Below, piece by piece: positions 3,402 through 19,444 of a stretch of DNA of 64,000 bases. The DNA comes from Flavobacteriales bacterium (GTDB lineage: Bacteria > Bacteroidota > Bacteroidia > Flavobacteriales_F > PHOS-HE28), in contig JADJVC010000001.1 in assembly GCA_016710685.1 (NCBI GenBank), forward strand, positions 72,948 to 136,947, in the 5' to 3' direction. Below the pieces are notes generated by a model. That model was given only the letters and a program-made list of their open reading frames with translations, did not search any database and was not told the origin of the DNA. Each line of letters begins with the position of its first letter. Position 1 is the first letter of the stretch. Both the position numbers and the translations under genes were made by a program.

Positions 3402-4590
3402 CTACTTCAGGAAAAGCTTCCCGGTCAGCGACGTCCCGTACGCGTTATCGATCCGGTACACATAGCTTCCGGCCACAAGATTCTTCCGCAGGAATACGCA
3501 CGACGGACCGTGGAATTCCTGCTGGCTCACGACTCTGCCGCTCATGTCGCTTACCGTGAGTTTGTGCGTGGCCGGTGATGTTTCGCTCAATTCAATTGTG
3601 GCTTGGGATAACACCGGGTTGGGGTAAACCCGCACTGCAGTTCCTGTATTGGCCATGTCGTGCGTGCTCAAATTTGGATTTTCCAAAATGGTGCGAAATT
3701 GTTCGAATGTGCCAGCGTCCATCAACGTGTGGCGGTACCCTCCAGCCCAGGTGTCTACGCCTAGAACATTGTAATTCACGTTGTCCGTTACCAAAATGCC
3801 ACTGCCACTCTCCCCGGGAACTCCAACCCAATTCTGTACGCCTACATAATTGGCGATACCAGCACTGCTGAGCACCACAGGCGTGGAGAAATGGTAAAGT
3901 GTGTCCCCGTTGTAAATAATGCTCGGGTCACCTGCAACATTGTCTGCCGGATAGGAGAACTTGTGGACAATTTTATCGTTGAAATAGGTGGAATCCGTGG
4001 TAAAGCCTAAGCCGATCCATCCGAGTTCTTCACCTAACGGATGTTCCAGCTCAATCAAAGCATTATCTCGTTCCCACTCCAATGGTACGTAGTAACGGAC
4101 CGCGCGAGCTCACCCGTAAATACACCGGATTCCGTTGTCAAAAAACTGGATTAAAGTCTATCTGCCCGGTGCGCCATTCCCCGCTGAACATATCCCGCAA
4201 GCAATGGGATGCGGTAAGGACATGCCAAGGCCCAACTAACTGTCCAGAGCATCGCGCCCAACTCGAATCAGCTTCAATCCTCCTTAATGCGCCAACGGCC
4301 CGTATGGGGTAGTCTGTCAACGAATTCATACTTGCGGCGGTTGGTGGCAGTTGATTTCCCGGACCGAGGTAGCCCGCAGGGGCGGCCATATTATCCAACG
4401 TTATCAAACCGGGCAGTGTGCCGATGCCATTTGATAAAAAGCCCGAAACCGAATCCGTGACAGCCACGGGATGGATCGTGTCCACTTCCTCCGTTACCGG
4501 GTTGTAGACTAAAATGGTGTTGTCCTGTGCCAATAGCGACAGTTGAAAGAGAGCGAAACCAAAAGAAATCAGTGCGCAACGAATTTGCAT
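3402..4590 (-). pseudogene. trypsin-like (S1) serine peptidase with T9SS C-terminal sorting domain, disrupted
   Basis: Signal peptide plus TASHC (His) in ORF 4138..4590; Asp region, GESGSG (Ser) and Por/T9SS CTD in ORF 3402..4082, which is in another frame. A TGA after a T6 run at 4138 and a second in-frame TGA mean at least 2 lesions are needed to join the parts. Confidence 0.7.
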
Positions 4591-4625
4591 TGACGATGAA
4601 CGAAGAGCAGGGGATTTTAGTACGT

Positions 4626-4761
4626 CGGCCAACCCGACTTGGACCACTTCGACCAAAAGGACGTGAGCGACAGCTTGAAACAAGTGCTGAAAGCCGAAGA
4701 CGAGGAGCGCAAGAATTCCTCCAAGGCGTTCGGGAGGGAGGAGCCGAGTGAGTGAGTGTAT
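4626..4761. repeat. direct repeat copy 2 (136 bp), an orphan duplicate of the nuclease gene 3' end
   Basis: Aligns to 3224..3359. Confidence 0.85.
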
Positions 4762-4789
4762 TCGGATTTCAGTTGCCCTCTGTCATTTC

Positions 4790-6238
4790 CTATTGCCGCG
4801 CCACTACCACACGTTGCAGTTGCCTGCTGCCGTTCTGCTCAAGCTCCAATAAGTACATGCCATCTGCAACGGCATTAAGGTCCATGCGGTGCACCGCAGC
4901 CATGGGCAGCACAGTTTTTACCAATGCGCCTTGCACTGAGTATAAGCGCAAGGTGCTGCCGGGTTGTACGCCGTCCAAGGAAATGTTCAGGAAGTCATTG
5001 GCAGGGTCGGGCCAAACACGGAACCGGCCTTCTTCATTTTCTGTGATCGCATTGAATTCGCCGATTTGGAAATCCGTGCTGTAGGTGGTGCCGGCGTAGT
5101 CCACCTGAAATTGCCAGTTGCCCGTTGGCCAAGTGGAGTTCACCACGTTGACCCATTGCGTATATGCCGTGGCGTAGTAGGGCCAAGGCGAAGTCCAGCT
5201 CCATTCTTCGAACAGCCCGTCGGGGCTGATGTTACGCATGGTATGAACGCTGGCCGAGTCGAGGTCGCGGTAGTAGATCTTGAAGATGATGGAGTCCCCG
5301 ACGTTGAAGCCGGTCTGCTCGTACGTGATCTCGGGCGTGGGACAATTGTAGTTGTCCAGTGTGGAATAGTGTGTGGAGATGTGGTTGACCTGCGGAATTG
5401 AATAGGCCGGTTGGACCGCCCACCAACTTTCGGTGCCATTCATGCTGTTGCACGGCCCCGCATAAGGGTCCACCACATTGTTGTTGGCGTCCATCACTTG
5501 AAAATGCAGGTGGGGATAGCTGCTGCTCCCACTGCTGCCGGCATTGCCGAGAAATTCCCCGGCCACTACCGTTTCGCCGATGCCTTTCGCGGTAACCGTG
5601 CCGGACTTCATGTGCCAATACCACGATTCGGAACCGTCGGAATGTTCCAGCACGATACCGTTCCAATCGGGACTTCCCGTGTTGCTGCACATCCGGTCGA
5701 AGTATCCGTCGCGCTTGTTGATGATCACACCGTCCGCTGCGGCGATGATCTCCATGTTCTCCTCGTCCATCTGTTTCCATCCATAGGGCCAGTAGACCAC
5801 GTCCGTTCCCGCATGGTTCCCGCTCGCCCAATCGTACGTGCGCGTGCCACAATCGTAATCCAGCACATGGTTGTTGGGCAACGGATCATGGTCCACCCCG
5901 AAACGCACGGCACTGTATCCGTAATCGTCAAACCCCGCGCGGGCCTGCGTTGGCCAGATGAACAGCGGGTGGTTACCGCCTCGGTCCACCTGCGGAAGTT
6001 CCGGGTGCTCGGCATGTACATGCTGGGCGTTCCGCTGATTTTCCAATGAAACCTCCTGCTGTTGTTCCAGCGAAATGCACGGTGCGTTTTCCACGGAAGG
6101 CGTGCCAAGGAAGCCTTTCCACCCGCTCGTACCGCTCGGTTCAAGGGGCTGAAGGTTTTGTGCCTCGGCGCCTTTCCATGCAGTGAGCACCAACAAAGTG
6201 CAGGCGGTCATGCGCCAAAATGCAGTTTTCCGTTTCAT
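4790..6238 (-). CDS. M23 family metallopeptidase with T9SS C-terminal sorting domain
   Basis: Signal peptide (MKRKTAFWRMTACTLLVLTAW); LytM/M23 motifs (HSDGSESWYWHM, GNAGSSGSSSYPHLHFQV); C-terminal CTD (LRLYSVQGALV..YLLELEQNG). The ORF's upstream ATG at 6295 is less likely. Confidence 0.75.
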   Translation of the reverse strand: MKRKTAFWRMTACTLLVLTAWKGAEAQNLQPLEPSGTSGWKGFLGTPSVENAPCISLEQQQEVSLENQRNAQHVHAEHPELPQVDRGGNHPLFIWPTQARAGFDDYGYSAVRFGVDHDPLPNNHVLDYDCGTRTYDWASGNHAGTDVVYWPYGWKQMDEENMEIIAAADGVIINKRDGYFDRMCSNTGSPDWNGIVLEHSDGSESWYWHMKSGTVTAKGIGETVVAGEFLGNAGSSGSSSYPHLHFQVMDANNNVVDPYAGPCNSMNGTESWWAVQPAYSIPQVNHISTHYSTLDNYNCPTPEITYEQTGFNVGDSIIFKIYYRDLDSASVHTMRNISPDGLFEEWSWTSPWPYYATAYTQWVNVVNSTWPTGNWQFQVDYAGTTYSTDFQIGEFNAITENEEGRFRVWPDPANDFLNISLDGVQPGSTLRLYSVQGALVKTVLPMAAVHRMDLNAVADGMYLLELEQNGSRQLQRVVVARQ

Positions 6239-6332
6239 TTCGGCGAGTTTTATCCGCCGAAAGTAGACTTTCTGATAGTCTCTGTCCATCCCCAAAAGGG
6301 GGGATGTGGTATTTTCTGCAAATCATTCCGGC

Positions 6333-7004
6333 CTAGAACCGGCCGATCTTCAACGTTACCCCGGCATTGAAGCCTCGCAGCGCGTCCTTCGGAGTTTCCG
6401 GTAGGGTGATGTCCGAAGTGTAGCGGTACGAAACTCCAAGGCCCAACCGCACCAGCTTGATCATGCTGAGCTCTAGCGCGATGCCTGGTTCAATAACGAA
6501 AAAGGCCTGTGCATCGCCGGTATTATACCGGGTTGGGCCGTTCGGTCGTCCCAAGCGGCTTTCGTAGGTCTCGTAAACCGCTCCACCAGCGCCGATGATC
6601 ACCGGTAAGGTAACGTGTATGGCACTGCGGTAGGCGATCACCGGCTCGATCAACAAGCCGCCATAGCCCATGCGGAATTGGCTGGTGTGCCGGACGAAAA
6701 TGCCTTCCTCCGCAAGATGTGAATCGTAGGCCGTGTTCGGTACGTCCGTCACCAGGCCAAAACCGGCGAATCCGAGTGTCACCCGATGGTCGATGATCCA
6801 GCCGCCACGCACGCCGGTGAGCAGCGCATCTTGGTCCATCACGCGTGTGTAATGCGCCGAAAGACCGCCCCAACCTCCGTTCGAGCGGCCGCTACCGGAG
6901 CCGATAAGCGTGTGCATGGGCAAGGTGTCGGTCTGGGCGTTCAGAAGGACCGGTAACGCAATTGCAAAGAGGAAAGCGGCGAAGGGAAATGGTTTGTGTC
7001 GCAT
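6333..7004 (-). CDS. hypothetical secreted/outer-membrane protein
   Basis: Signal peptide (FPFAAFLFAIALPVLLNAQ); Gly-rich with alternating hydrophobics, suggesting a beta-barrel. Confidence 0.5.
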   Translation of the reverse strand: MRHKPFPFAAFLFAIALPVLLNAQTDTLPMHTLIGSGSGRSNGGWGGLSAHYTRVMDQDALLTGVRGGWIIDHRVTLGFAGFGLVTDVPNTAYDSHLAEEGIFVRHTSQFRMGYGGLLIEPVIAYRSAIHVTLPVIIGAGGAVYETYESRLGRPNGPTRYNTGDAQAFFVIEPGIALELSMIKLVRLGLGVSYRYTSDITLPETPKDALRGFNAGVTLKIGRF

Positions 7005-7066
7005 GGTGCGGTGTTGTTTGCCCATATGACAAACACATCGCTGGAAACCCCTATGCGGTCGAAAAA

Positions 7067-7639
7067 TTAATTCTTCCCATGCCCCACCAATGCTCCTTCC
7101 AGCACCAGCAACTGCACCTTCAACACCGCTGCCACCGTGAGGCTGTCCCGCACTTCACCCCGCTGCACCATGGCGTACAGCTCCGCGAACGGCAATTTGC
7201 GCTGCTCCAGCTCCTCGTCATGATCCGGCTCCGGAGCATGAAAGGTGAGGCCCTGTGCCACGAAGATGATGGCCTGCTCGTCGCTGGCGCTGTTGCTCAG
7301 GTCCATTTGCAGGATCTCCGTCCATTGGTCCGCCTCAATGCCCACTTCTTCACGCAGCTCGCGCTTGGCACTTTCCATTGCCGGGATGTTGCGGTCTCCG
7401 CCGCCTTCGGGCATTTCCCAACTGTAAGCTTCCATGGGGTAGCGGTACTGCCCCACGATCCAGGTGTTCATGTCCTCATCCAGCGGGATCACGCCCACGG
7501 CGAGATTCTTGAAGTGGATCACGCCGTATACGCCCTGCTTCCCGCCGGGGTCGATCACTTCGTGGTGCGCCACGGAGATCCAGGGGGTTTCGTACGCCAA
7601 TTTCTCGCTCAGGGTGGTCCACGGACCGCGCTTCTTCAT
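7067..7639 (-). CDS. NUDIX hydrolase
   Basis: Nudix box GGGDRNIPAMESAKRELREEVG. Confidence 0.8.
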   Translation of the reverse strand: MKKRGPWTTLSEKLAYETPWISVAHHEVIDPGGKQGVYGVIHFKNLAVGVIPLDEDMNTWIVGQYRYPMEAYSWEMPEGGGDRNIPAMESAKRELREEVGIEADQWTEILQMDLSNSASDEQAIIFVAQGLTFHAPEPDHDEELEQRKLPFAELYAMVQRGEVRDSLTVAAVLKVQLLVLEGALVGHGKN

Positions 7640-7782
7640 GCGGCAAAGATGACAACGGGCTTTGTTTTACCGCAGAGGGCGCGGAGAACACAGAGGATCG
7701 TCATGGTGCTCTCCGGATTTTACCCCGTCCCTCGCGCCCGGCATTTCTCAGCGCTCTCCGCGCCCTCCGCGGTTTCACTTCG

Positions 7783-8547
7783 TCATCTCCGCGAGGGATC
7801 CAGCCGGAACATGATGTCAAGCTTCATCACGCTGCGTACCAATTGGCCGTCTTTCACCGCCGGTTGCCAGCAGAGCATGCGCACCAGTCGCATGGCCTCC
7901 GCATCACAGCCACCGCCCAGGAAATTCAAGGTACGTAGATTGCTCACACTGCCGGTGGTCTCCACCGTGAATTCGATCGTGACCTTGCCCTGGATGTCCA
8001 AGCGGAAGGCTTCCGGTGGGTACTTCAGGTTTTGCCCCAAATAATTCGGCAATTGGCGAAGCCCACCTTCGATCCGCGGGGTGGCCAAGGTGTCCGTTTC
8101 GCGATCGGTGTACAGCTTGTTCGATGCATCCTGGGGCAACGTGCTTTCCAGCGGCGGACAAGCTTTTTTCTTCGCTTGCAGCTTGGTGTACTTCTTCGCG
8201 TTGAAAGGGATCATGATGCTATGGTCCTTCTCGAAGACCGTGCCGTTCGCCGAGGCGGGCCTCCAGCGGAGCATGCGCGCCAAACGGAGTGCTTCCGCAT
8301 CGCAGGCGGGGTCCAACGGCAGGCTTACGCGCGCGTTTTGCACGGAACCGTCCTCCAGTATTTTGAAACTAATTCCCACCTCGCCATTCAGCCCAGTGGC
8401 TAATGCTTCCTGCGGAAAATGCTGCTCCTGCTCCAGGAACCAGTTCACGGCATCTTTGCCGCCCAACGGTTCGGGCGGGGTGAAGTCCTGCGCGGAAGCA
8501 AGCGTTGCCAGAAGGAGGAAAAAGGGGGGGAGAAGTATTCGCGCCAT
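7783..8547 (-). CDS. TonB C-terminal domain-containing protein (two TonB_C-like repeats)
   Basis: Signal peptide; two copies of the YP.EA...G.EG.V...F.V...G.V motif ending CDAEA(L/M)RL(A/V)RML(R/C)W(R/Q)PA. Confidence 0.55.
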   Translation of the reverse strand: MARILLPPFFLLLATLASAQDFTPPEPLGGKDAVNWFLEQEQHFPQEALATGLNGEVGISFKILEDGSVQNARVSLPLDPACDAEALRLARMLRWRPASANGTVFEKDHSIMIPFNAKKYTKLQAKKKACPPLESTLPQDASNKLYTDRETDTLATPRIEGGLRQLPNYLGQNLKYPPEAFRLDIQGKVTIEFTVETTGSVSNLRTLNFLGGGCDAEAMRLVRMLCWQPAVKDGQLVRSVMKLDIMFRLDPSRR

Positions 8548-8566
8548 GGTCCCGTAAATTTGCAGC

Positions 8567-9157
8567 ATGGCCGCCAAACCAACATTCGTCCCCGGTGATG
8601 AAGTTTCCTTCCTGAACGAGGTGGGCGGCGGCATGGTGTTGTCCCTGGTGGGCAAGGACCACGCCAAGGTACGTACGTTCGATGGCTTCGAGTTCGCAGT
8701 GCCGCTGAAAGAACTTGTGATGCGCGCCCAAAATTCCAGTTATGCCGTAAGCGACCACCACGCCCAGCTTCGCGCCAGCGACGACCGCATGATGGAGCGC
8801 ATTGAGCGCAACAAAGGTCGCGGTGGCTCATCGGCAAACGGCGGAACTGCCCCCAAACCCGTGGCCGACCCGCAAACGGTGGAGGTGGACTTGCATCTCC
8901 ACAAGTTGGTGGAGGACGAAAGCAAGTTGAGCGATGGTGAAAAACTCAGCTTTCAACTCGATTTTTTCGAGCGCCGCTTGAACACGGCCATCCGCGAACG
9001 CAAAAAGCGCGTCATAGTGATACACGGCGTGGGCGAAGGGATTCTGCGCGAAGAAGTGCGGAAGACCCTGCAGTTCTACGAAGGCGTCCGTTTCGATGAC
9101 GCCGACCCGCGCAAATACGGCTACGGCGCTACGGCTATTGAGATTTTGCATTATTGA
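8567..9157 (+). CDS. Smr/MutS2-type small endonuclease domain protein
   Basis: C-terminal Smr motif VIVIHGVGEGILREEV. Confidence 0.65.
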   Translation: MAAKPTFVPGDEVSFLNEVGGGMVLSLVGKDHAKVRTFDGFEFAVPLKELVMRAQNSSYAVSDHHAQLRASDDRMMERIERNKGRGGSSANGGTAPKPVADPQTVEVDLHLHKLVEDESKLSDGEKLSFQLDFFERRLNTAIRERKKRVIVIHGVGEGILREEVRKTLQFYEGVRFDDADPRKYGYGATAIEILHY

Positions 9158-9208
9158 GCGTTCGTTGCGCAGGGGCCCGAAGTGGAGACCTGCGAAGAAG
9201 TTCATTGA

Positions 9209-9643
9209 CATCCTGCGCACTGCTCCGCCGTTCTTTCCGCCGCATGGCGGGGAGGGAGGAAAGTCCGGGCAGCAAAGGGCACCGTGCTTCCTAACGGGAA
9301 GGGGCGCCGCTGGTGACGGTGGCGTTACGGAAAGTGCCACAGAAAGGGAAACCGCCGATCGTTGAAGTTGAAGTGAAGGCCCGCCTTCGCCAAGGCTTCG
9401 GCGAGGCAAGGATGAAAAGGTGGGGTAAGAGCCCACCAGTGCCCCGTGTGAGCGGGGCAGCTTGGTAAACCCCACGGGCTGAAAGACCAAATAAGCTGGA
9501 ACGCCTGCCGCAAGGCAGGCTAAGCGCGGCCCGCGTGATCCAGCGGGTAGGTCGATAGAGGCCGTGCGCGAGCACGGTCCCAGATAGATGGCGGAGGTCC
9601 GCCGCAAGGTGGATACAGGATCCGGCTTATAGGTGCGCAGGCT
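9209..9643 (+). ncRNA. rnpB: RNase P RNA, bacterial type A
   Basis: P4 strands GGAGGAAAGTCCGGGC and ACAGGATCCGGCTTAT; ACAGAAAGGGAAACCGCC, GGTAAGAGCCCACCAG and GGTAAACCCCAC conserved blocks; P1 pairing CCTGCGCAC/GTGCGCAGG. Confidence 0.85.
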
Positions 9644-9649
9644 TTTTTG

Positions 9650-9690
9650 CAAAGGCCCCGGCAGCAATGTTGGGGCCTTTTGCGATTTAA
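9650..9690 (+). terminator. rho-independent terminator after rnpB
   Basis: GGCCCC..GGGGCC hairpin followed by TTTTGCGATTT. Confidence 0.6.
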
Positions 9691-9857
9691 AGCCTTACCA
9701 CGCGCTCAGGTTTTTGCAGAGCATGCGTGCCGTAGGGATGTGCGATCTGCATAGGGCCTCTGGCCCGCCTCAAACGCTGTGAATCTAATTCCGTGTTTTG
9801 GACGGGAGCTCAATTCTTTAATGGGTTGTATAAAAGTGCGGAGGGAGTGGCTAGGGT

Positions 9858-11192
9858 TTAATTCCTATTGAACACCAGAGGCTTTGCAGGTGTAGTCTCG
9901 CGGATGTGGATCATTCCATTGAACTGCTCTTTGGCGATAATCCGGTCGGAACATCTCTTGTAATTCATGAAGACTGCTCCGATATCATAGGTCCGCTGTG
10001 GCGTTGTAAAAATGGGGTCATCAGTAGCGGAGAGGTCCATGAAGAACGCTACTTCCTTGGTTGTGTCAAAAGAGTTCGTCAACGTGTTCCTTTTGGATGG
10101 CGGTACCGTGCATGCCATCCGTCCTTTGTACATGTGCTTCCGCCGGAACACGTATTTGTAAGCCGTGCCATAAAGCGTGTTAGGTCCCTTGAAGGCTTGG
10201 AAGGAACCTTCGCTGAAGGTGAACCCGACCGCGTAATACTTCTCGTTGTAATCGTCCTTCAAGTATCCACCCATGGGGCGCATCACGGAGTTGTTAACGA
10301 TGGACTGGTTGATATGTCCGTTGTGCGCCCAAATGAACATTTTCGACTTCCGCTCCTGCTGGATCTGATGGATGTTGGCGGCCATGCAACTGTCGCGGAA
10401 GTTGTAGCCGGGGGAGAGGTTCTTTACCGCTTGGTCGAAGTTGTCAGAGCAGTGTTGCATCGTCAGGAACCGCGCGCTGGACGAGCTGGTTCGAATGGCC
10501 TCTTCATTCGTATTCAGCCAAGCCTCAAGGAGGGAATGCATCTGGTTCAACGTGTCGGAATAGTGCTGGTCCTTGTCCTGAAGTTTGTGGTAAAGTTCCA
10601 GTTCGGAATGTTGGACCACCGGGCTGATGATGGCTTGCAGTGCTTCCTTGTTCCCGATGTTCAACTTGCCGATGGACCGGCTCAAATACTGGATGGGTGT
10701 ATAAAAATTCTGCATGTCAAAGCCGTAGAACAGAACCTTGTCATCCTGCGCCCTTCCGGCGTTAAAGTCCTTGATCCAAAGTACAAGCTCCTTCATCTCT
10801 GCGTTCTGCCAAGTCCAGAAATCGAAATGCCTTAGAACGGAATCGATGTCACCGATGCCGGAATCGACATAGTCATTGATGGAACTGCATCCTCCGAACG
10901 AGTCTTCGATCCCGAAAATCCTATATCCGTGGTTCTGCACCAAATATTTGAAGGACTCCCGCTTGATGTCGAAGAACTCCTTTGTCCCATGTGTTGCTTC
11001 CCCCATGCCGAACACCAGCACATCGTCAAAACCGGCTTTAGACCGGAAGAAGTCGAAATAGAGGTTGGGGGCGCTTTTTTCGAAAGTATAGATTGTTTCA
11101 TCGGAGGATCCGATCTGCACTACCTCTTGGGAATCGGCCTTGCCAAAAAGGCATGCCATGAATAAGATGGAAAGGGGAGGTGCGATGGTCAT
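9858..11192 (-). CDS. erythromycin esterase (Ere) family protein
   Basis: 444 aa; family-typical N-terminus (VFGMGEATHGTKEF); lower GC than the flanks. Confidence 0.7.
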   Translation of the reverse strand: MTIAPPLSILFMACLFGKADSQEVVQIGSSDETIYTFEKSAPNLYFDFFRSKAGFDDVLVFGMGEATHGTKEFFDIKRESFKYLVQNHGYRIFGIEDSFGGCSSINDYVDSGIGDIDSVLRHFDFWTWQNAEMKELVLWIKDFNAGRAQDDKVLFYGFDMQNFYTPIQYLSRSIGKLNIGNKEALQAIISPVVQHSELELYHKLQDKDQHYSDTLNQMHSLLEAWLNTNEEAIRTSSSSARFLTMQHCSDNFDQAVKNLSPGYNFRDSCMAANIHQIQQERKSKMFIWAHNGHINQSIVNNSVMRPMGGYLKDDYNEKYYAVGFTFSEGSFQAFKGPNTLYGTAYKYVFRRKHMYKGRMACTVPPSKRNTLTNSFDTTKEVAFFMDLSATDDPIFTTPQRTYDIGAVFMNYKRCSDRIIAKEQFNGMIHIRETTPAKPLVFNRN

Positions 11193-11223
11193 GCAGGTGT
11201 GAAGGCGAGTCTTGGGTATTGTT

Positions 11224-11297
11224 ACAGTTGGACAGACTTCGCAAGTCTACTCCCCATACCGATAATGCCCAATCACCTTGTAGCCGAACAAACAATC
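11224..11297. repeat. 'A' repeat copy 1: palindrome AGACTTCGCAAGTCT plus duplicated DUF1287 3' end (encodes ..YKVIGHYRYGE)
   Basis: 74 bp with about 5 mismatches to 11482..11555. Confidence 0.85.
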
Positions 11298-11362
11298 GCT
11301 CGGCCTCCCGCAAGTGTTCCAGCCTTCCACATCGTGCGTTTCCACTTGGCTGGATCCCCAAT

Positions 11363-11485
11363 CTCTACCGCAAGTCTTCCCAGCCAACCAGAGATGGGGT
11401 TCCAGCATACTTAGCTGGGGCGACTTGTGGCAGCTCAGTCGTAGCGTACGGTCGCGTACCTGGAAGTCTTCAGACTTCAACACAG
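11363..11485. repeat. 'B' repeat copy 1 (123 bp)
   Basis: About 80% identical to 13223..13345; ends in the GGAAGTCTTCAGACTTC palindrome. Confidence 0.85.
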
Positions 11486-11555
11486 TTGGACAGACTTCGC
11501 AAGTCTACATCCCATACCGATAATGCCCAATAACCTTGAAGCTGAACAAACAATC
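11482..11555. repeat. 'A' repeat copy 2, covering the true 3' end of the DUF1287 gene plus 23 bp downstream
   Basis: See copy 1. Confidence 0.85.
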
Positions 11556-11933
11556 CTCAAGCACTTGCCCCGCACCAATGTTGTGGACCATCAAATGCCT
11601 TTTGCCATCCGCAGCCTTCCGGTTTGACACAATGCCAATGTGCGTGATGCCGCCTCCCAAGTTCCAACAAACAAGGTCTCCCGGCAGGTAGGTTTTCGGA
11701 TCTTGGAGAAGGTCCAGCTTCCTGTAGGCGCGGATCACAACATCGGTACACACGCCCTTGCTTGCCGGCACATCACCGTTCGGGTAGTCCAGCTTGAAGT
11801 AGGATGGATCGTAATGCACCGTTTGCTTCGTGAGCACTTCCGCAGAATCTGCGAGCTGGGTGTAGAAGTCAGTTTGACCTGAAACCGGAATGAGGGATAG
11901 TGACCAAAGCGATAGGAAGAGCAGAATTCTCAT
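11505..11933 (-). CDS. DUF1287 domain-containing protein, secreted
   Basis: Signal peptide; VHYDPSY..PNGDVP..GVCTDVVIRAY motif typical of DUF1287. Confidence 0.65.
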   Translation of the reverse strand: MRILLFLSLWSLSLIPVSGQTDFYTQLADSAEVLTKQTVHYDPSYFKLDYPNGDVPASKGVCTDVVIRAYRKLDLLQDPKTYLPGDLVCWNLGGGITHIGIVSNRKAADGKRHLMVHNIGAGQVLEDCLFSFKVIGHYRYGM

Positions 11934-12022
11934 CGTGCAGGAGTTATGCTACCCCCCTGTGTAATGGGTAACGGGCAAGGACACCGGAGCGTATTCACTC
12001 AAGTCCCGGTGTTGTCTTACCC

Positions 12023-13174
12023 CTAAAGCACAATGAACCTGATCTGTTCTGATGCATGATCCGTGATCACGTTCATCAGGTACACCCCGCTGGGTAGATC
12101 TTGAACATCAATGTTCGTCGTTCGCGCCTCAACACTTCCACTGGAGACCTTTGCACCAGTAACCGACAGGATCTCATAGGTTGTTCGCTCGCTGATCCGC
12201 GCAACGCTGAGGGTAATGCTTCCTTCACAAGGACTGGGGTATAGCTGATAGGAGACCTTGCTATCTAGAGCCATGGCATTGATACCGGTAGAGATATCCG
12301 GGCACGTGACATTGGTGAGGTAGTTGGACGCCACGGACGGAGTGTCCAGCAACAACGGGCAATAGCACGCATCGTCAATCAGGAAATGCTTCAGCCAGGA
12401 GAGGCCGATCTTGCCGACATATCCTTGGCCTCCTGTTGGACTGTTGGCTACTTCATGATCTCCATTCTCAATTTCAAAGATCAACTTGCTCGTTGTTTCC
12501 GGTGTCAGGTTGTAATGGATATCGGCATGTTGTGCCGGTGGTGCAATTACATCGTTCTCCGCACTGAAGATCAATACAGGGACAGGGTGGTCCAGTTCAG
12601 CAGCGGTGGTCTGGCTATCCAGCCAAGGACAGAGCGCCATAACGGCCTTTAAGGTCGGGTCTGCGGTCGCGGCAAGTTGTGCGCCGCCGCCACCCATGGA
12701 CCAACCACCAACTGCCATCCTATCGAGGTCCAGGTTGCCGACGAGCGGAGAACCGGATCTCGTGTTCTCCTCCGTTATGGTTACGATCGCATCCAGGAGG
12801 GCATCTCTTCTATCGTAAGGATCATCAAAGAGGCTATTGGTGCCTAAGGTCATGGCCACAATGCCATGCGAGGCCAAGAACGGACCCCAATCTTGGATCG
12901 ATGATTGAAAGGATATGAATCCGGGAACCATCGCAATGCTTGCAAAAGGGGGTGTTGCGTCCGTTGGGTAGTAGAGGGTGGCCCCCGAATAGTCCGGGCC
13001 ATTCCTCAAGCCGTTGGACTCGGTGAGGATACCTACGCTGTAAATTCCCGGGTCGGTAATGGAGTCCAGTGTCAACGGATCGCAGCTCTGTGCTTTGCTG
13101 GAACCAGCAAACATGGACAGACAAAGGAGCAGGTACATTCCTTTTGCGTGGACACACTTCTGGGTTCTGTTCAT
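12023..13174 (-). CDS. PETase-like polyesterase / dienelactone hydrolase family esterase with T9SS C-terminal sorting domain
   Basis: Collinear with IsPETase/cutinase-like enzymes: YYPTDA..IAMVPGF.SFQSSI.WGPFLASHGIVAMT, nucleophile elbow GWSMGGGG, FSAENDVIAP (Asp), FEIENGDHEVANS (His). C-terminal Por CTD (LYPSPCEGSITLSV..GVYLMNV). Alternative start at 13138. Confidence 0.8.
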   Translation of the reverse strand: MNRTQKCVHAKGMYLLLCLSMFAGSSKAQSCDPLTLDSITDPGIYSVGILTESNGLRNGPDYSGATLYYPTDATPPFASIAMVPGFISFQSSIQDWGPFLASHGIVAMTLGTNSLFDDPYDRRDALLDAIVTITEENTRSGSPLVGNLDLDRMAVGGWSMGGGGAQLAATADPTLKAVMALCPWLDSQTTAAELDHPVPVLIFSAENDVIAPPAQHADIHYNLTPETTSKLIFEIENGDHEVANSPTGGQGYVGKIGLSWLKHFLIDDACYCPLLLDTPSVASNYLTNVTCPDISTGINAMALDSKVSYQLYPSPCEGSITLSVARISERTTYEILSVTGAKVSSGSVEARTTNIDVQDLPSGVYLMNVITDHASEQIRFIVL

Positions 13175-13222
13175 TGCTCTTTGTTGAATGGGTCGAAGAT
13201 ATCGAATGCAAACGCGACCATG

Positions 13223-13345
13223 CTCTACCGCACGTCTTCCCAGCCAACCCGATCTGGAGTTCCAACAAACAGAGCTGGGGCGACTTGTGGCACCTCAGTC
13301 TTGATGTACGGTTGTTCTGCTGGAAGTCTTCAGACTTCAACACAG
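13223..13345. repeat. 'B' repeat copy 2 (123 bp), 48 bp upstream of the PETase-like gene
   Basis: Aligns to 11363..11485. Confidence 0.85.
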
Positions 13346-13532
13346 ACCGGTAACTCAGCAATAGCTTTGGATTTCAGAAGCCCACAAGTCGCTCCGGCCT
13401 GTACTTGGCAAGAACACACTTTATTACTGGGCCGGGAAGGCTTTAGGGAGGGCTGGAGAGGGTGGGTAACATTGTGCTCCCGACAAGCAACCCGTTCAAC
13501 GGAACATACTGCACCGGAGGAGGAAATCTCGT

Positions 13533-14441
13533 TCAAGCAACGGCTTTGATCACCGCGCCGATATGGTTCATGGCTTTGCCGTAGGTCTCTATGCCATGTC
13601 CCACCTGATGGAAGACCTTCACATCCTTAAGCGTCTTGATGTGCTTTTTCGCATTTTCAATGGACCTTTGGAACGGAAAGAGCAGGTCCTTATCCCCTTC
13701 AAGTAGGTAGGTGTCCACTTTAACCTCTCCCAACTGACCGTTCATATAATATGGCTTTTGCGTCTTGTCCTTATAGCGACTGATGGCGAACAACTCATAG
13801 TCGACCAACAAGTTCTCGCTCGCTGTGGACAGGGTGTGTTCCGGTTTTGAGAATACTGCTTTGTCCAGGAATTTTCGCACGTTTGCTGCAGTTGGTTGGA
13901 TGATCGGGAGCAGATTATAATAGAGGTTTTTCGGAGTCATTGAAAACGGCTGCAAGCAGCCGGGGTTCAAGAGGAAGGCGGCTTTCACCTTTTCAGGCTG
14001 TACAATACCAAGCTTCATGCAGATCAGCCCACCGAACGATGCGCCTGCAACAAAAGTCTTCTCGACCCCTAAATGGTCCAATATTTCAGCTGCCCAAATT
14101 CCGTAATCCAATGAATGAATGTCCGGCGTGTCCCCATGGCTCAGATTGGGCAGTCCGTTGGTCTCCACCATAAAGATGCGCAATTTGCTGTTCAAGTTGT
14201 CCAGCCCTCTATCCAGGTCCCAGATCAATGAGGTCGTTCGTGCACCAGGAAAAATAACGAGCGTTTCAACATCGGGCTCCGCCGTGTTCAGGCCCCAAAC
14301 ATGTGTCTTGCCAAGGGAGGACGGGACTTCAAAGCGTTCGTAGTTTCTCGCGTTATGTGCCTCCAGCTGTTCCACCCATTTTTCAAAGGAGCGAACGTCC
14401 GCTTTCTCATCCTTGAACTTCGATTTGCTCTTAATCTTCAT
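13533..14441 (-). CDS. alpha/beta hydrolase fold protein
   Basis: 302 aa; GASFGG nucleophile elbow, C-terminal His; lower GC. Confidence 0.65.
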   Translation of the reverse strand: MKIKSKSKFKDEKADVRSFEKWVEQLEAHNARNYERFEVPSSLGKTHVWGLNTAEPDVETLVIFPGARTTSLIWDLDRGLDNLNSKLRIFMVETNGLPNLSHGDTPDIHSLDYGIWAAEILDHLGVEKTFVAGASFGGLICMKLGIVQPEKVKAAFLLNPGCLQPFSMTPKNLYYNLLPIIQPTAANVRKFLDKAVFSKPEHTLSTASENLLVDYELFAISRYKDKTQKPYYMNGQLGEVKVDTYLLEGDKDLLFPFQRSIENAKKHIKTLKDVKVFHQVGHGIETYGKAMNHIGAVIKAVA

Positions 14442-14598
14442 TTGCGCTCCTCGTCTGGTTCGGTTTCCTTCAAAGCTGCGAATTTATCGGCCATCTCAAT
14501 TAGTGCATTTACCAATTGGTGTCAGTACCAATGAAACCTAGCAATTTAATGCTGTGCCCAGTTTCTCCGCCGTTCTGGTGGAAGACACTGCGAGGAAC

Positions 14599-17166
14599 TC
14601 AATACAACAACTCATTCCCACCCCCAAAAGGCTTCCGCAGCTCGTACTTCAGATCGTGCAGCACACTCGCCTTCACGTTGATCCGGAACGTAAAGCTTTT
14701 CCGCACGCCCAATGGGATCACGTTCGCGTTGAATTCCCAGCAGTGCAGGTCCCAGTAGAGGTTGAGCGAGGTGGGCGTCCATTCGCCGGCTTCCATGTCG
14801 TAGCCGCTGCTGAAGCCGAGTTTCCAGTATTTGAGGATGTTGAGGTCGCCGCTGAAGAGCACGCTTTGCGTTTGCTGTTCGGTGTATTCGGCTACTTGGT
14901 ACGCCCGCGCCATGGACCAGCTGTAGTTGACGCGCACATGCCACGGGATGCTGAAATTCACCTTCGCGCCTTTGCTGGGGTCGGCTTCCGCTACGACTTG
15001 GTCGTCGCTGCTGCTTCCCGCGAGGGGCTTGCCGTAGCGCTTGCTTTGCAGCTCGAAGCCCAGGGCGGCGTTGGCGTTCGTTAAATGCGCGAGCGCGCCG
15101 TCCGCCGTGCGTGCGGAGCGGTTGATGCGCTGGCCCAACGCGTTGGTGGCATACGGGTCGAAGGCTGCGGCAACGTTCAGGTCCAGGAAGTTGAACAGGC
15201 GCGTGCGGGCAGCGGTGCTCACGGGCGACCAGCGCACGGAATCCTTCAGCAGGTCGTAGTTGGCGTTGATGCCTAAGTAGTCCAGCAATTTCAGCTTTTT
15301 CATTACCGCTTCACCTTTGGCATCGGGCTTTTTGGACAGCACTTTTCCTTCGAGGCTTTGCACAAGGCCTAGTGAAACAAGCCCGCTGGCGTTGGGGTTT
15401 GGCGTGCCGTAAATGCCGATGTCGTAGGGCGAATAGGAACTCTCCGCTCCGCTTGGGCCGTAGGGGCCGAAGATGCGCGTGTCGTTTCCCGGCAGATAGG
15501 TGAGCGCGGCGCTGGGCGTAATGACGTGGCGGATCTGTTTCAGCCTTCCGCCGCGGAACACGTACATGCCGTAAAGCTTGCTGGTGGCGGTGGCGCCGAT
15601 GCTCCAGTCGAAGGTGTTGTTGATGCCGGCAACGGTGTCGGTGAGCAGCGTGTCCGTGGCCTGCACGTAGGTTTTTCGCAGGGCATCGAAGTAGGTGCGG
15701 TCGGTGATGTTGAGCTGCGGATTCAGCGTGAAGGCGCGCGTTTTGAACGAGGTGCTCACCGTGCCGGTATGCCGCACACCGTTGCGCATGCGGTCCAGCA
15801 AATTCGGGATGTTGGCAATGCTGATCTGGTCTTCCGTGGTGTTGAGCCGGTTCTCGAAAACGCTGCTCCACGTTACGCCGATGTTCTCGTACCACTTCGG
15901 CGCACCGGCCGCAGGCTTGCCGAACCACGTGCCGGGGAAGAAGCGCTGCACGTTGAAATTCACCGAGGGCAGCGTTACGTCGAAGGTGCGGTTAAGCGTG
16001 TTCTGGCTGTGCCGCGCGCCCACGCTCAGGCTGTACGGTTTGCCCGTCCACAGGTGGTTCCAGGTGATGTTGCTCTGGAAGGTGTTGCTCAAATAATCCT
16101 GCGTGGTGCTGTTGAAGTTGTTGGTGAAATTCTGGCTGGAACCCGCGTTCACGCTGGCGTTAAAGCGGTCGGTGAGGCTGGCTTTGGGGTCGAGCAAATG
16201 GTTCCAGCGGATAAAAAACGTACGCTGCTCGCTGAAATCCGGGTATTCCTGAATGCTGTTGAGCTTGTCGCTGTACTGCAGGTCCATGGAGCCGCTGAAG
16301 CGGTAGCGCTGCTTGTAGCGCGTTACGGAGCGCAGGCCCCAACTGCCCCGGCTGTAGATGTCCGCCGTGAGCTGCTCGTCGAAGTTGTCGCCCAGGGGCA
16401 GATAATAGCCGCCGTTCAGCAGGTACAAGCCGTATTGGTCGCTGGTGCCCCAACTGGGAATGAGCAGGCCCGCGCTGCCGCCCTTGTGGTTGGGGAAGAG
16501 GCCGAAAGGCACCACCAACGGCGTGGGAATTTTGCCGATCTTCATGTACGCGGGCCCCGCTACGATCTTGTCGTCCGGTATCACGATCATGCGGCTTACG
16601 GCGAACTGGTAGTGGGGGTGGGGCCGGTCGCACGTGGTGAGCCTGCCGCCCAAGCTGTGTATTTCGCCGTTCGCGTGGCGCTTGCTTACGCGGGCCAGCG
16701 CATAGAGCTGCGATTCCTGCGTGCGCACTTCCTTGATCAAGCCTTCCTTGGTGTCGAAATTGTAGCGGATGCTGTCCGCCGTTACGTCTTGACCGCCTTG
16801 CGTGAACGTGGGCGCGCCCGCTGGGTTTCCGGTGCTGTCCAAGGTGCCGAATGCCTGCACTTCGTTCTTCGCCAAGTCCAGCAAAATGCGGTCCGCCTGC
16901 AGCACCACATCCCCGTATTCCACCTTGGCGGCACCAAAGAGGTACACGGTTTGCAAGGCCACGTCGTATCGCATGCTGTCGCGCGCACTGTACTTCACTT
17001 CATCCCCCAAGCCTTGCGCCTGTGCGGACATCCCCGCCATTCCTAACAATACCGTGATGAAAATGCACCTCGCCACGCTGGAAAGCCTCACCACGGTGGG
17101 GCTACCTTCGCGCTCGCCGCTGAAAAGGGCGGCACGGATCGCGGTTATGCGGGGTGAAAAAATCAT
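14599..17166 (-). CDS. lptD: LPS-assembly protein LptD-like (OstA N-terminal domain plus large beta-barrel)
   Basis: 855 aa; OstA-like N-terminus (YDVALQTVYLFGAAKVEYGDVVLQADRILLD); typical Bacteroidota LptD length. Probable true start near 17040 (MAGMSAQAQG). Confidence 0.7.
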   Translation of the reverse strand: MIFSPRITAIRAALFSGEREGSPTVVRLSSVARCIFITVLLGMAGMSAQAQGLGDEVKYSARDSMRYDVALQTVYLFGAAKVEYGDVVLQADRILLDLAKNEVQAFGTLDSTGNPAGAPTFTQGGQDVTADSIRYNFDTKEGLIKEVRTQESQLYALARVSKRHANGEIHSLGGRLTTCDRPHPHYQFAVSRMIVIPDDKIVAGPAYMKIGKIPTPLVVPFGLFPNHKGGSAGLLIPSWGTSDQYGLYLLNGGYYLPLGDNFDEQLTADIYSRGSWGLRSVTRYKQRYRFSGSMDLQYSDKLNSIQEYPDFSEQRTFFIRWNHLLDPKASLTDRFNASVNAGSSQNFTNNFNSTTQDYLSNTFQSNITWNHLWTGKPYSLSVGARHSQNTLNRTFDVTLPSVNFNVQRFFPGTWFGKPAAGAPKWYENIGVTWSSVFENRLNTTEDQISIANIPNLLDRMRNGVRHTGTVSTSFKTRAFTLNPQLNITDRTYFDALRKTYVQATDTLLTDTVAGINNTFDWSIGATATSKLYGMYVFRGGRLKQIRHVITPSAALTYLPGNDTRIFGPYGPSGAESSYSPYDIGIYGTPNPNASGLVSLGLVQSLEGKVLSKKPDAKGEAVMKKLKLLDYLGINANYDLLKDSVRWSPVSTAARTRLFNFLDLNVAAAFDPYATNALGQRINRSARTADGALAHLTNANAALGFELQSKRYGKPLAGSSSDDQVVAEADPSKGAKVNFSIPWHVRVNYSWSMARAYQVAEYTEQQTQSVLFSGDLNILKYWKLGFSSGYDMEAGEWTPTSLNLYWDLHCWEFNANVIPLGVRKSFTFRINVKASVLHDLKYELRKPFGGGNELLY

Positions 17167-18385
17167 TCAATTCTTTGGCGGCGCTGCGGCGCCGAAAGTA
17201 GCTGTTGCACGCTGTGCGGGCCTGAACGCGCCGATGGGCGCAGCATTGCGTGCGGTGGTTTTTCCGGCGATTTTTGTTTTCGGTATGGCGCAAATTTTCG
17301 CTCAGGGGTCGCCGAGCGGAGTCGAGGCGCCCCCTAAGGACGCCAACTACGTAGGCACCGTGGTGCTGGACGCAGGCCACGGCGGCAAAGATCCCGGCAA
17401 CCTCGGCACCAAACGCTACAAGACCACCGAGAAGGATGTCGCGCTGGCTGTTACGCTCGCGGTGGGCAAGTACATCAACGAGAATTTGCCCGACGTGAAG
17501 GTGCTCTACACCCGGGAGGACGACCGCTTCATCGAACTGATGGAGCGCAACAACATCGCCAACCGCAACAAGGCCGACGTCTTCATCAGCATCCACTGCA
17601 ACGCCAACAGCAACGCGGACCCGCACGGTTGCGAAACCTATGTGATGGGCCTGCACAAAACCGAGGCCAACATGAAGGTGGCCATGAAGGAGAACGAATC
17701 CATCCTGCTGGAAGCGGACCATGCATTGAAATACGACGGTTACGACCCGAAGGACCCCGAGAGCATGATCGCGTTGAGCCTGCGCCAGAACGCTTACATC
17801 GACCACAGCCTGCTGCTGAGCTCACTCGTACAAGAACAGTTCAAAGAGCGCGTGGGCCGCGTGAACCGGGGGGTGAAGCAGGCCGGTTTCCTTGTGATCA
17901 GCTACACCACCATGCCTGCGGTGCTCATCGAGCTGGGTTTCCTCACCAATGCCAACGAGGAAGACTTCCTGCAAAGCAAAAAAGGGCAGGATTACATGGC
18001 TTCCGCGATCTACCGCGCCTTCAAGGACTACAAGAACCAGATAGAGCACAAGGACGTTTCCTTCGCACCCGCCAAGCCCGACAGCGCAGCCGTGGATTCG
18101 GCGAAAGCCGCTGCCAGCAAGGGTTCCGGCGTGGTGTTCAAAGTCCAGATCATCACCAGCAGCAAGCAGATCCCGAAGGGTTCGTCCAAGTTCAACGGCC
18201 TGGATGCGGAGGAAATGAAAGCCTCCGACCTGTGGAAATACAGCGTGGGTGCCGAACCAACGCTGCAAGCTGCGCGTATTGTCCAGGAGAAATGCAAGGC
18301 CAAAGGCTTCACCGGCGCTTTCATCACGGCGTGGAAGGACGGAAAACGCATCGAACTTCAACAAGCCGTTAACTTGGGCCGGTAA
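17147..18385 (+). CDS. N-acetylmuramoyl-L-alanine amidase (Amidase_3) with C-terminal SPOR domain
   Basis: VVLDAGHGG..DPG, ISIHCNA and GFLTNANEE motifs; C-terminal SPOR-like fold; alternative start 17234 with a cleaner signal peptide. Confidence 0.8.
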   Translation: MRGEKIIQFFGGAAAPKVAVARCAGLNAPMGAALRAVVFPAIFVFGMAQIFAQGSPSGVEAPPKDANYVGTVVLDAGHGGKDPGNLGTKRYKTTEKDVALAVTLAVGKYINENLPDVKVLYTREDDRFIELMERNNIANRNKADVFISIHCNANSNADPHGCETYVMGLHKTEANMKVAMKENESILLEADHALKYDGYDPKDPESMIALSLRQNAYIDHSLLLSSLVQEQFKERVGRVNRGVKQAGFLVISYTTMPAVLIELGFLTNANEEDFLQSKKGQDYMASAIYRAFKDYKNQIEHKDVSFAPAKPDSAAVDSAKAAASKGSGVVFKVQIITSSKQIPKGSSKFNGLDAEEMKASDLWKYSVGAEPTLQAARIVQEKCKAKGFTGAFITAWKDGKRIELQQAVNLGR

Positions 18386-18421
18386 TTTCCGGACCGCGAA
18401 CACTTAGCACCCCCCATTCCT

Positions 18422-19444
18422 TTGCCAGCTTTCAAACGCCAGTATTCCATTGCCCTCATGGTCCTCGGGGGCATTGTGCTGCTCATCTTCGGCATTAACT
18501 ACCTCAAGGGGTTGGACCTGCTGCAGCGCCGAAACATTTACCACGCGGTGTATCCCGATGTTTCGGGCATCAACGATGCCACGCCAGTGGTGTACCACGG
18601 CTATAAAGTGGGTCAGGTGATCGGTACGGAATTGATGCCCGACGGCAGCGGTCGCATCGATGTTTCCTTCCAGATCAATGAAGACCGGCTGAAGATCACC
18701 AAGGACTCCAAGGCCGAACTCTTCAGCGCGGACCTGTTCAGCCGCGCTGTGCGCATACAGCTTGGCACAGGAGCACTTGCCGAACGCGGAGATACCCTGC
18801 ACGGCGGTGCGGAAATGAGCCTTACGGAATCGGTAAGCTCGCAGATCGACCCGCTGAAAAGGAAAGCCGAAACCATGCTCGCCAACGTGGATTCTGTGCT
18901 AACTTCCTTCCAGTTGATCCTGAATGAAAATGCGCGCGGCGATATTGATGCCAGCTTCACCAACCTGCGCGGCACGCTGGAGAACATCAACGCCACCACG
19001 AAGAAACTGGATGACCTGGTGGGCAAGGAAAGCAACCGCATCAGCAGCATCATGGCCAATGTGGACAAGGTGAGCGGGAATTTGGCCGCGAACAATGAGC
19101 ACCTTACCAACATCCTCGCCAACGCGGACAGCGCCACCGCGGCGCTCGCCAACGGCCGCCTGGAACGCATGATGGCCAACCTCGAAGGCACTTCCAATGA
19201 GCTAAAGGCCACCATGGACAAGATCAACGGTGGCGAAGGCACGCTGGGCAAGTTGATGACCGACGACAGCCTCTATGTGAACCTCAACGCCGCCACGCAT
19301 CAGATGGACCTGTTGATGGAAGATCTCCGCTTAAACCCGCACCGCTACCTCAGCATTTTCGGTCGCAAAGACAAATTGCCCAAGCTGAGCGGCAGCGACG
19401 TTGAACGCATCCGCGAAGCCTATCCACCGAAGACAACGCCATGA
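18422..19444 (+). CDS. MlaD/MCE family protein
   Basis: N-terminal transmembrane helix plus Mce domain, followed by a long coiled-coil tail. Confidence 0.7.
   Translation: MPAFKRQYSIALMVLGGIVLLIFGINYLKGLDLLQRRNIYHAVYPDVSGINDATPVVYHGYKVGQVIGTELMPDGSGRIDVSFQINEDRLKITKDSKAELFSADLFSRAVRIQLGTGALAERGDTLHGGAEMSLTESVSSQIDPLKRKAETMLANVDSVLTSFQLILNENARGDIDASFTNLRGTLENINATTKKLDDLVGKESNRISSIMANVDKVSGNLAANNEHLTNILANADSATAALANGRLERMMANLEGTSNELKATMDKINGGEGTLGKLMTDDSLYVNLNAATHQMDLLMEDLRLNPHRYLSIFGRKDKLPKLSGSDVERIREAYPPKTTP

Follow-up and report, generated by a model that had tools for sequence, protein, structure and literature searches.

A probable integrase-free gene-turnover hotspot between rnpB and lptD in a Flavobacteriales genome, with REPIN-like repeats and a PET30-like esterase gene

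This study examined the DNA between the RNase P RNA gene (rnpB) and lptD in a Flavobacteriales bacterium (PHOS-HE28; assembly GCA_016710685.1). The analysed stretch of 64,000 nt (contig JADJVC010000001.1, positions 72,948-136,947) is referred to as the window, and all coordinates given below are those of the window. Within it, rnpB and lptD are separated by 4.9 kb that carry four genes and several copies of a repeat resembling REPINs, i.e., doublets of repetitive extragenic palindromic (REP) sequences. A preliminary description of this DNA had reported rnpB and its terminator followed by four minus-strand genes up to lptD, an order confirmed by the match to Rfam family RF00010, by a hairpin at 9640-9694 and by Pfam families for all of the genes. 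The features of the interval and its anchors are as follows.

9212..9645, plus strand: rnpB, RNase P RNA of class A, conserved left anchor (Rfam RF00010, 255.4 bits, E 4.6e-82)
9640..9717, plus strand: terminator-like hairpin 3' of rnpB and the last bases homologous to the sister-species locus L001 (fold; blastn block end at 9717)
9858..11192, minus strand: Ere-family (PF05139) esterase-like gene (Pfam Erythro_esteras, 179.5 bits, 1e-52)
11224..11297, no strand assigned: 74-nt direct duplicate of 11482-11555 (93% identity), comprising the DUF1287 gene 3' end and a small hairpin (repeat family D2)
11359..11484, minus strand: REPIN-like palindromic repeat, copy A (repeat family D1; covariance model R1, 122.8 bits; fold z -4.1)
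11505..11933, minus strand: DUF1287 gene with signal peptide (Pfam PF06940)
12023..13174, minus strand: PET30-like esterase gene (PF12740) with a C-terminal type IX secretion system (T9SS) type-A sorting domain (Pfam, NCBIfam, PDB 7PZJ)
13219..13344, minus strand: REPIN-like repeat, copy B (covariance model R1, 114.2 bits)
13318..13456, plus strand: REPIN-like repeat, copy C (covariance model R1, 103.6 bits)
13533..14441, minus strand: abh, alpha/beta hydrolase gene without signal peptide (Pfam Abhydrolase_1/Hydrolase_4)
14599..17166, minus strand: lptD, conserved right anchor (LptD_2, 449.9 bits, 1e-134)

The hairpin at 9640-9694 folds with -35.1 kcal/mol (z -5.7), and the variable DNA starts at 9718, approximately 70 nt past rnpB, where the blastn block with L001 ends. 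On the other side, homology with both L001 (blastn block) and the conspecific contig L117 resumes exactly at the lptD stop codon, position 14599. The four genes between these borders are separated by spacers of 89-358 nt. Copy A of the repeat lies between the DUF1287 and Ere genes and is bracketed by both copies of the 74-nt duplicate; copy B lies 44 nt upstream of the esterase start codon, and copy C, inverted relative to copy B, is fused to it via a common small hairpin.

The absence of an integrase, a transposase and an attachment-site (att) duplication of rnpB, already remarked upon for this DNA, was upheld. Among all open reading frames (ORFs) of at least 80 aa in 9650-14600, searches against Pfam and NCBIfam detected no integrase or transposase and matched only hydrolase and DUF families. 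A repeat search combined with blastn-short, using the last 225 nt of the rnpB region, returned only matches of at most 14 nt (E of at least 1.7), which is chance level for an att-like copy of the rnpB 3' end. Nothing meaningful was found for plasmid or phage similarity of the interval. The number of proteins with a T9SS sorting domain, previously given as two, had to be lowered to one, encoded at 12023-13174; the Ere, DUF1287 and abh proteins yielded no such domain at E <=0.01 in Pfam or NCBIfam.

The comparison with the sister species at locus L001, whose LptD shares 91% amino acid identity with that of the window and whose rnpB is 86% identical, revealed a mosaic. Three homologous blocks were aligned by blastn: 7095-9717 (81% identity; tonB, smr and rnpB with its hairpin), 12024-13209 (91% nucleotide identity; the esterase gene and 35 nt upstream) and 14599-20767 (84% identity; beginning exactly at the lptD stop). 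The two intervening stretches, 9718-12023 (Ere, repeat, DUF1287) and 13210-14598 (repeats, abh), have no counterpart in L001, which has other genes instead: the first position is occupied by an extracytoplasmic function (ECF) sigma factor, three unknown ORFs and a beta-lactamase-family gene, the second by a CHU_C T9SS protein. The esterase is the sole one of the four genes common to the L001 interval, the other three being absent there. The L001 interval is lower in GC too, and it contains two T9SS-domain genes, those for the CHU_C protein and the esterase.

The esterase gene also stands apart from its surroundings in divergence. By a simple Nei-Gojobori count, the synonymous distance (dS) between the window and L001 is 0.22 for the esterase, versus 0.59 for lptD, 1.06 for smr, 1.14 for tonB, and 0.96 and 1.11 for two genes beyond amiC, with the nonsynonymous distance (dN) being approximately 0.06 throughout, in the esterase and the five flanking core genes alike. 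Third-position identity ranges over 0.77-0.92 along the esterase gene and is flat at 0.63-0.79 along lptD, with no identity gradient detected inside lptD in this comparison. Because the codon bias of the esterase gene is weak (GC content at third codon positions, GC3, of 0.60), the low dS is not accounted for by codon selection. These sequence distances are most simply read as an exchange of the esterase gene between the window species and that of L001 after their divergence. CHU_C and esterase genes are paired not only in L001 but also in L216 and, at a distance from lptD, in L217 (a 79% homologue), suggesting that the L001-type arrangement is the older one.

To place the interval in a wider context, GTDB species representatives were scanned for LptD, yielding 80 loci (L001-L080), all from metagenome-assembled genomes (MAGs) of uncultured Flavobacteriales/Bacteroidota. 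The side of lptD that bears amiC, an MlaD-like gene and an Fe-S protein gene is conserved in almost every locus extending over it. On the lptD 3' side, synteny breaks repeatedly: at least five arrangements occur among the 80 loci, none of them seen in the window. For the genes found downstream of lptD in the other species, a search for homologues by which a simple inversion might be mapped detected none anywhere in the 64 kb. As a breakpoint, the lptD side ranks no lower than the rnpB side. Proximity of the two anchors is rare: rnpB lies less than 10 kb from lptD in just two of the loci, L001 and L035, and in the latter the distance is 8.9 kb with unrelated ORFs between. The preliminary description had named rnpB directly followed by lptD in relatives as what would confirm an insertion, which did not hold, as the gaps in L001 and L035 are filled by other genes. 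Not one of the 80 related loci has rnpB abutting lptD, so the empty site that was predicted is absent from this sample.

Variation was also found within the species. Conspecific contigs were retrieved by their exact Smr or abh protein sequence from more than 10 samples or assemblies (JGI, ENA, NCBI MAGs, Logan), and the order tonB-smr-rnpB-Ere-DUF1287-esterase-abh-lptD was found in all of them at 97-100% nucleotide identity. The same four genes in more than 10 independent assemblies indicate that the arrangement is not a misassembly. The 100% identity of abh among these contigs was considered as a sign of a sweep and dismissed as circular, because contigs were selected by an exact abh protein match. 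Contig L117, with an identity of 96.7-98.2% to the window across rnpB, Ere, DUF1287 and esterase, does not have the 1,291 nt at 13307-14597 that comprise abh, REPIN copy C and the 5' part of copy B. There, 8-9 nt of unrelated filler connect the lptD stop to the 3' part of REPIN B, beyond which the esterase gene lies, so that one breakpoint of this indel lies at the lptD stop and the other inside copy B (13306|13307). Because L117 keeps just a truncated repeat, a deletion of the abh segment in L117 would be more parsimonious than its insertion in the window lineage.

Two smaller polymorphisms lie in and beside the DUF1287 gene. In the window copy of this gene, an internal in-frame deletion of 153 bp (junction 11715|11714) removes approximately 51 codons, leaving 142 aa instead of 193 aa; the PF06940 match of this copy is accordingly split into two stretches with a gap in the profile. 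By alignment, the deletion is unique to the window, all conspecific contigs having the 193-aa gene, and the shortened version may reflect gene decay or variation between strains. Beyond repeat A, the window shares with L081 and L082 a duplication of 53-74 nt from the DUF1287 3' end, and the extra 53 nt are missing in the conspecific L092, L093 and L096. Additionally, in L091, L094 and L098, lptD and its neighbours were called as many short fragments at 80-87% nucleotide identity, and these are probably low-quality or chimeric assemblies that call for careful use. L092 carries at 1730-2736 a PIN_3/DUF6364 (toxin-antitoxin-like) pair between a competence gene and CCG-domain genes, a pair that the window and the other contigs do not have.

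The Ere and abh genes, which have no counterpart in the L001 interval, were located elsewhere in relatives. Orthologues of Ere (81% and 77% identity in L101 and L102) and of abh (82% in L107, from the same MAG as lptD locus L008, and 81% in L106) belong to a locus with the order ADH - Methyltransf_10 - [abh - VIT1] - 93-aa ORF - Glyoxalase_6 - unknown - Ere - [beta-lactamase] - LemA - DUF2207 - [abh - LRR], and in L103 (38% GC) abh, Ere and Methyltransf_10 occur within 13 kb. The abh family numbered 1398 homologues at E <=1e-20; the best 120 of these 1398 are all at least 72% identical to the window protein, and this 72-82% identity extends across Cytophagales, Chitinophagales, Saprospiraceae, Flavobacterium and Ignavibacteriota/Kapaibacteria. 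A recent import of abh from a 38%-GC donor, as its 76% identity to the low-GC L103 might have suggested, was rejected because the family is 72-82% identical across orders. On these sequence comparisons, Ere and abh are native to the clade and not foreign. The abh protein belongs to a 302-aa family of uncharacterised function, annotated as 'pimeloyl-ACP methyl ester carboxylesterase'; it is unusually strongly conserved, yet dispensable in L117.

Combined, these results make it probable that the 4.9-kb stretch is an integrase-free gene-turnover hotspot delimited by the rnpB terminator and the lptD stop and filled with a mosaic of the clade's own accessory genes. At least three segments (Ere with DUF1287, the esterase, and abh) would have been gained, exchanged or lost separately by recombination, with breakpoints falling at gene ends and in small repeats, one of them inside a REPIN. 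Under such a scheme, the two anchors would bracket dispensable DNA in which single genes or short segments may be replaced, swapped with the sister species or deleted. The cargo would be drawn from an accessory pool of the clade, here a predicted secreted Ere-family protein, a secreted DUF1287 protein, a T9SS-exported PET30-type esterase and a cytoplasmic alpha/beta hydrolase, and the REPINs may mark the interval as permissive DNA. Because the spacers measure 89-358 nt and the genes do not travel together in relatives, the four genes are probably independent transcription units that do not form a single pathway.

The island proposal of the preliminary description is retained in part: the interval is variable, lower-GC accessory DNA, with three of its four genes absent in L001 and abh absent in L117. 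A single island inserted at rnpB is another matter. In its full form, this proposal holds that one island integrated site-specifically at the 3' end of rnpB long ago and has since lost its integrase and att sites; the onset of variable DNA approximately 70 nt after rnpB, right past the terminator hairpin, the GC content below that of the flanks and the three genes missing from L001 would all be in keeping with it. However, a recombinase was not detected and matches to the rnpB 3' end do not exceed 14 nt, a gene shared with L001 and a polymorphic segment both lie inside the supposed island, and the segments differ in divergence. Furthermore, no relative has an empty rnpB-lptD site, Ere and abh are native genes with another locus in relatives, and the opposite boundary falls exactly at the lptD stop, on the flank that is a breakpoint clade-wide. 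A single rnpB-integrated island is consequently held to be very improbable indeed.

The base composition, from which an island had first been suspected, was evaluated by sliding and per-gene GC. In 500-nt windows, GC is 0.48-0.56 over 9750-14750 versus 0.58-0.63 on both flanks, and the four genes have GC contents of 0.492-0.531, whereas the window's 46 other genes average 0.575 +/- 0.024 (z -1.8 to -3.4; Mann-Whitney p = 5e-5). The reported drop in composition is therefore real, but codon usage is only mildly atypical: GC3 of the four genes is 0.60-0.68 versus 0.715 +/- 0.061 (z -0.6 to -1.9), and their synonymous-codon likelihoods give z -0.4 to -1.9. In Ere and abh, much of the dip sits in codon positions 1 and 2 (GC1 and GC2), and the same low GC1 and GC2 are present in the orthologues from other genomes. 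Comparably low GC occurs elsewhere in the window, notably in the T9SS cargo genes at 3402-4082 and 31050-33611; low GC in this genome tracks secreted accessory genes generally. The dip of the interval reflects the AT-leaning amino acid composition of the encoded families together with the somewhat lower GC3 typical of accessory and T9SS-cargo genes here. A GC dip beside a stable-RNA gene, taken alone, is no indication of an integrated island. A further lower-GC patch, 30406-33611 (GC 0.53), holds the gene for a T9SS cargo protein of 853 aa whose beta-sandwich domains are InlK/NOMO-like.

These compositional results bear on a further alternative, in which no transfer took place: an ancestral rnpB-lptD cluster would have been inherited vertically and thinned by differential loss, with the GC dip reflecting protein composition and low expression. 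The low GC1 and GC2 of every Ere and abh orthologue and the mild deviation in codon usage fit such a history, as does the phylum-wide conservation of the abh family, and the truncated REPIN in L117 suggests a deletion and not an insertion. The esterase does not fit, with a dS 3-5 times below that of the flanking core genes, nor does the linkage of rnpB and lptD, which among 80 species is confined to the window species, L001 and L035 (8.9 kb). The orthologues of Ere and abh reside in a different, widely conserved neighbourhood, so that at least a relocation occurred, and an ancestor with both gene sets would need approximately 12 genes followed by many losses. Purely vertical descent is accordingly considered unlikely, although it is the alternative to which the most weight is given.

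The repeats of the interval were resolved into a family of their own. A repeat search detected a 128-nt direct repeat at 11358-11485 and 13218-13345 with 83% identity (copies A and B), and profile searches added the third, inverted copy C as well as copies directly downstream of lptD in L003 and L064, those of L064 being an inverted-then-direct pair, arranged as the copies after abh in the window are. The unit of approximately 130 nt consists of a 6-bp hairpin (GAAGTC-TGAA-GACTTC) and a long imperfect hairpin, in which CCACAAGTCGCCCCAGC and GCTGGGAAGACTTGCGG form the arms around a variable loop of approximately 30 nt. Window copies A and B end in ...GCGGTAGAG, and other copies read GCGGCAGCG, GCGAGAGCG or GCGGGTGCC at this place. 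The covariance model recovered the three copies of the interval and no others in the 64-kb window; over 1.45 Mb of lptD loci it recovered no further copies, leaving 77 of the 80 related loci without any.

Metagenome contigs, searched by a pattern scan and then with the covariance model, contributed 140 matches, 104 of them distinct, on approximately 64 contigs. Across the family, 95.9% of alignment cells at paired positions are paired and 13 of 22 pairs show compensatory changes on both sides, values that are somewhat favoured because the alignment was fitted to the model, that none of 500 shuffles reached and that compare with at most 48% pairing in slid controls. The copies are intergenic and have either orientation, with no bias relative to their neighbours (43/26 upstream, 28/33 downstream); they often form '-,+' pairs approximately 75 nt apart or clusters of four. 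In L151 (1162-1878) and L212 (3529-4245), four units of alternating orientation occupy approximately 720 nt with no gene between, resembling clusters of bacterial interspersed mosaic elements (BIMEs).

A candidate enzyme accompanies the repeats. Of the ORFs flanking them, 5 of 73 match Y1_Tnp and encode proteins of approximately 160 aa, which score 79.4, 82.6 and 94.8 bits against the NCBIfam model for REP-associated tyrosine transposases (RAYTs; NF047646, cut-off 80). A RAYT gene is located between or beside repeat copies on at least 12 contigs, and in at least seven contigs (e.g., L181, L155, L127, L186, L124 and L180) an inverted repeat pair lies on both sides of it; no RAYT gene was found in the 64-kb window. 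Because the repeats are structured palindromes with a RAYT gene between inverted copies, the family is a REPIN-RAYT system. Rfam searches of the repeats and the interval, at gathering and permissive thresholds, returned nothing beyond rnpB, and no description of this REPIN-RAYT family was found in the literature or as an Rfam match. The covariance model and the approximately 100 distinct copies therefore provide a previously uncatalogued REPIN-RAYT family of Bacteroidota that is usable for the study of REPIN biology outside Proteobacteria.

Two other identities of the repeat were rejected. A gene-specific cis-regulatory RNA (5' untranslated region or terminator) does not agree with the lack of orientation bias or with a RAYT gene flanked by copies. 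An integron attC-like site, prompted by arrays spaced by approximately 1 kb, disagrees with the alternating orientation and with an associated enzyme that is a Y1 transposase; the R''/R' boxes (RYYYAAC/GTTRRRY) were not seen in the aligned copies by eye, with no attC model or IntI search applied. The sole pattern match on a viral contig, L215, is no more than a candidate repeat copy.

The presence of such repeats raises the question of whether they move the genes themselves. One form of this idea has the tyrosine transposase cut out REPIN-flanked genes and reinsert them as single-stranded cassettes. In its favour, REPINs adjoin DUF1287 and abh, one indel breakpoint falls inside a REPIN, and a repeat stands directly after lptD in L003 and L064. 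Yet no gene of the interval has REPINs on both sides in the manner of a transposon, the other breakpoints (the lptD stop, the esterase stop and 9717) lie outside repeats, no RAYT gene is in the window, and, bar a weak partial match at a contig end, no REPIN was found beside abh or Ere at their other locus. Cassette transposition of this kind is thus judged very unlikely. Slightly more room, although still little, is given to the speculation that REPINs with a RAYT acting in trans relocate individual accessory genes (abh, esterase, Ere) among a small number of permissive chromosomal sites in the clade. If true, this would amount to a gene-relocation device built on a domesticated transposase without classical mobile-element genes, with the lptD 3' end as a preferred landing site because a repeat stands directly after lptD in three species.

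Among the cargo, the esterase is closely related to PET30 of Kaistella jeonii. It matches PF12740 (PETase) with 192.6 bits versus a gathering threshold of 28, and its sorting domain is supported by Por_Secre_tail (41.1 bits versus 27) and TIGR04183 (35.5 versus 23). The best PDB match is 7PZJ (PET30; E 2.9e-112), over the full length including the sorting domain, and the motifs GWSMGG at residues 157-162, ENDVIAP at 206 and GDHEVAN at 238 align with the Ser-Asp-His residues of PET30 in 7PZJ. An N-terminal signal peptide is present. Against the NCBIfam equivalog for hydrolases of bis(2-hydroxyethyl) terephthalate (BHET), the protein scores 147 bits, under the cut-off of 520, and an exact look-up of the protein with two alternative starts returned no record. 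Given the full-length PET30 match, the sorting domain and the conserved GWSMGG, Asp and His positions, T9SS export and promiscuous carboxyl/polyester esterase activity would be expected. The Ere-family protein, which has an N-terminal signal or lipoprotein-like peptide, scores 47.7, 46.8 and 30.4 bits against the NCBIfam EreA/B/D models, whose cut-offs are 750-800; therefore, it is not a macrolide-resistance esterase.

Several points weigh against the hotspot interpretation or limit it. GC3 of Ere and abh is 0.06-0.11 below that of their orthologues, leaving room for transfer from a somewhat lower-GC relative. The flanking-gene dS values with which the esterase was compared are near saturation under the simple Nei-Gojobori count. 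Every compared sequence is a metagenome assembly, and the window genome is known here from 64 kb alone, so that Ere and abh may be relocated single copies or extra copies. L001 is the single relative with both anchors, which makes the polarity of most events tentative. The layout of the interval, its mosaic structure, the polymorphism, the low esterase dS and the identity of the repeat family are observations; the direction of each event and the mechanism of recombination are what we infer, with the link between REPINs and rearrangement resting on one breakpoint. With these points taken into account, the locus would be an ordinary turnover hotspot and offers a worked example of hydrolase genes, including one for a PET30-type esterase, that would have been reshuffled among uncultured Flavobacteriales known from numerous metagenome samples, with no recognisable mobile-element genes. 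Such reshuffling would proceed through exchange between sister species and presence or absence within a species. The findings as a whole do not overturn current understanding.

A second variable region lies on the other side of the NUDIX-tonB-smr-rnpB block, where window 3354-7094 has no equivalent at the matching place in L001; it contains T9SS trypsin-like and M23 peptidase genes and a gene for a 230-aa unknown protein. A 136-bp direct repeat (3224-3359 and 4626-4761, 98% identical), also present in the conspecific L081, duplicates the 3' end of an S1/P1-nuclease gene (2340-3353) and brackets approximately 1.27 kb of lower-GC DNA with a T9SS-tailed protein gene (3402-4082) and an ORF of very atypical codon usage (4138-4683). 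From its sequence, the region 3224-4761 resembles an insertion with a duplicated target more closely than the rnpB-lptD interval does.

The interval resembles the genomic islands that integrate at tRNA or tmRNA genes in lying beside the 3' end of a stable-RNA gene and in its lower GC; it differs in having no integrase, no duplicated RNA 3' end, no single-block structure and no empty site in relatives. The Ere protein of the window shares with EreA/B/C/D a PF05139 match over the full profile length, and it departs from them in its scores (30-48 bits versus cut-offs of 750-800) and its signal or lipoprotein-like N-terminus.

PET30 and PET27 (from Kaistella jeonii and Aequorivita sp.) are T9SS-exported promiscuous esterases with weak hydrolysis of polyethylene terephthalate (PET), PET30 being represented by PDB 7PZJ (PMC8767016). 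The window esterase agrees with them in the full-length match with sorting domain, GWSMGG, the Asp and His positions and the signal peptide; it differs in that its activity is a prediction and in its score under the BHET-hydrolase equivalog cut-off (147 versus 520).

REPINs were defined as REP doublets that REP-associated tyrosine transposases mobilise (PMC3116915), and for Bacteroidetes, TnpAREP subclasses 2.4 and 2.6 were reported, the gene being bordered by "atypical secondary structures" (PMC6006769). The present family corresponds to such systems in its imperfect palindrome of approximately 130 nt with two conserved inverted arms and a variable loop, in its intergenic placement in either orientation, often as inverted pairs or clusters, and in a single-gene Y1 transposase that attains the NCBIfam RAYT equivalog cut-off and lies between inverted copies. 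It is distinguished by an extra 6-bp hairpin approximately 45 nt upstream of the long hairpin, by a GTAG tag that is present in the window copies and not conserved across the family, and by a low copy density near lptD (three in 64 kb).

The closest overall parallel is with plasticity zones and integrase-free hotspots, in which two conserved anchors likewise bracket content that differs between species and strains, and with which the interval shares its mosaic structure, lower GC, accessory and secreted functions and lack of mobility genes. Compared with these zones, one anchor of the interval is the stable-RNA gene rnpB, and the cargo is orthologous to another conserved locus in relatives and not foreign to the clade.

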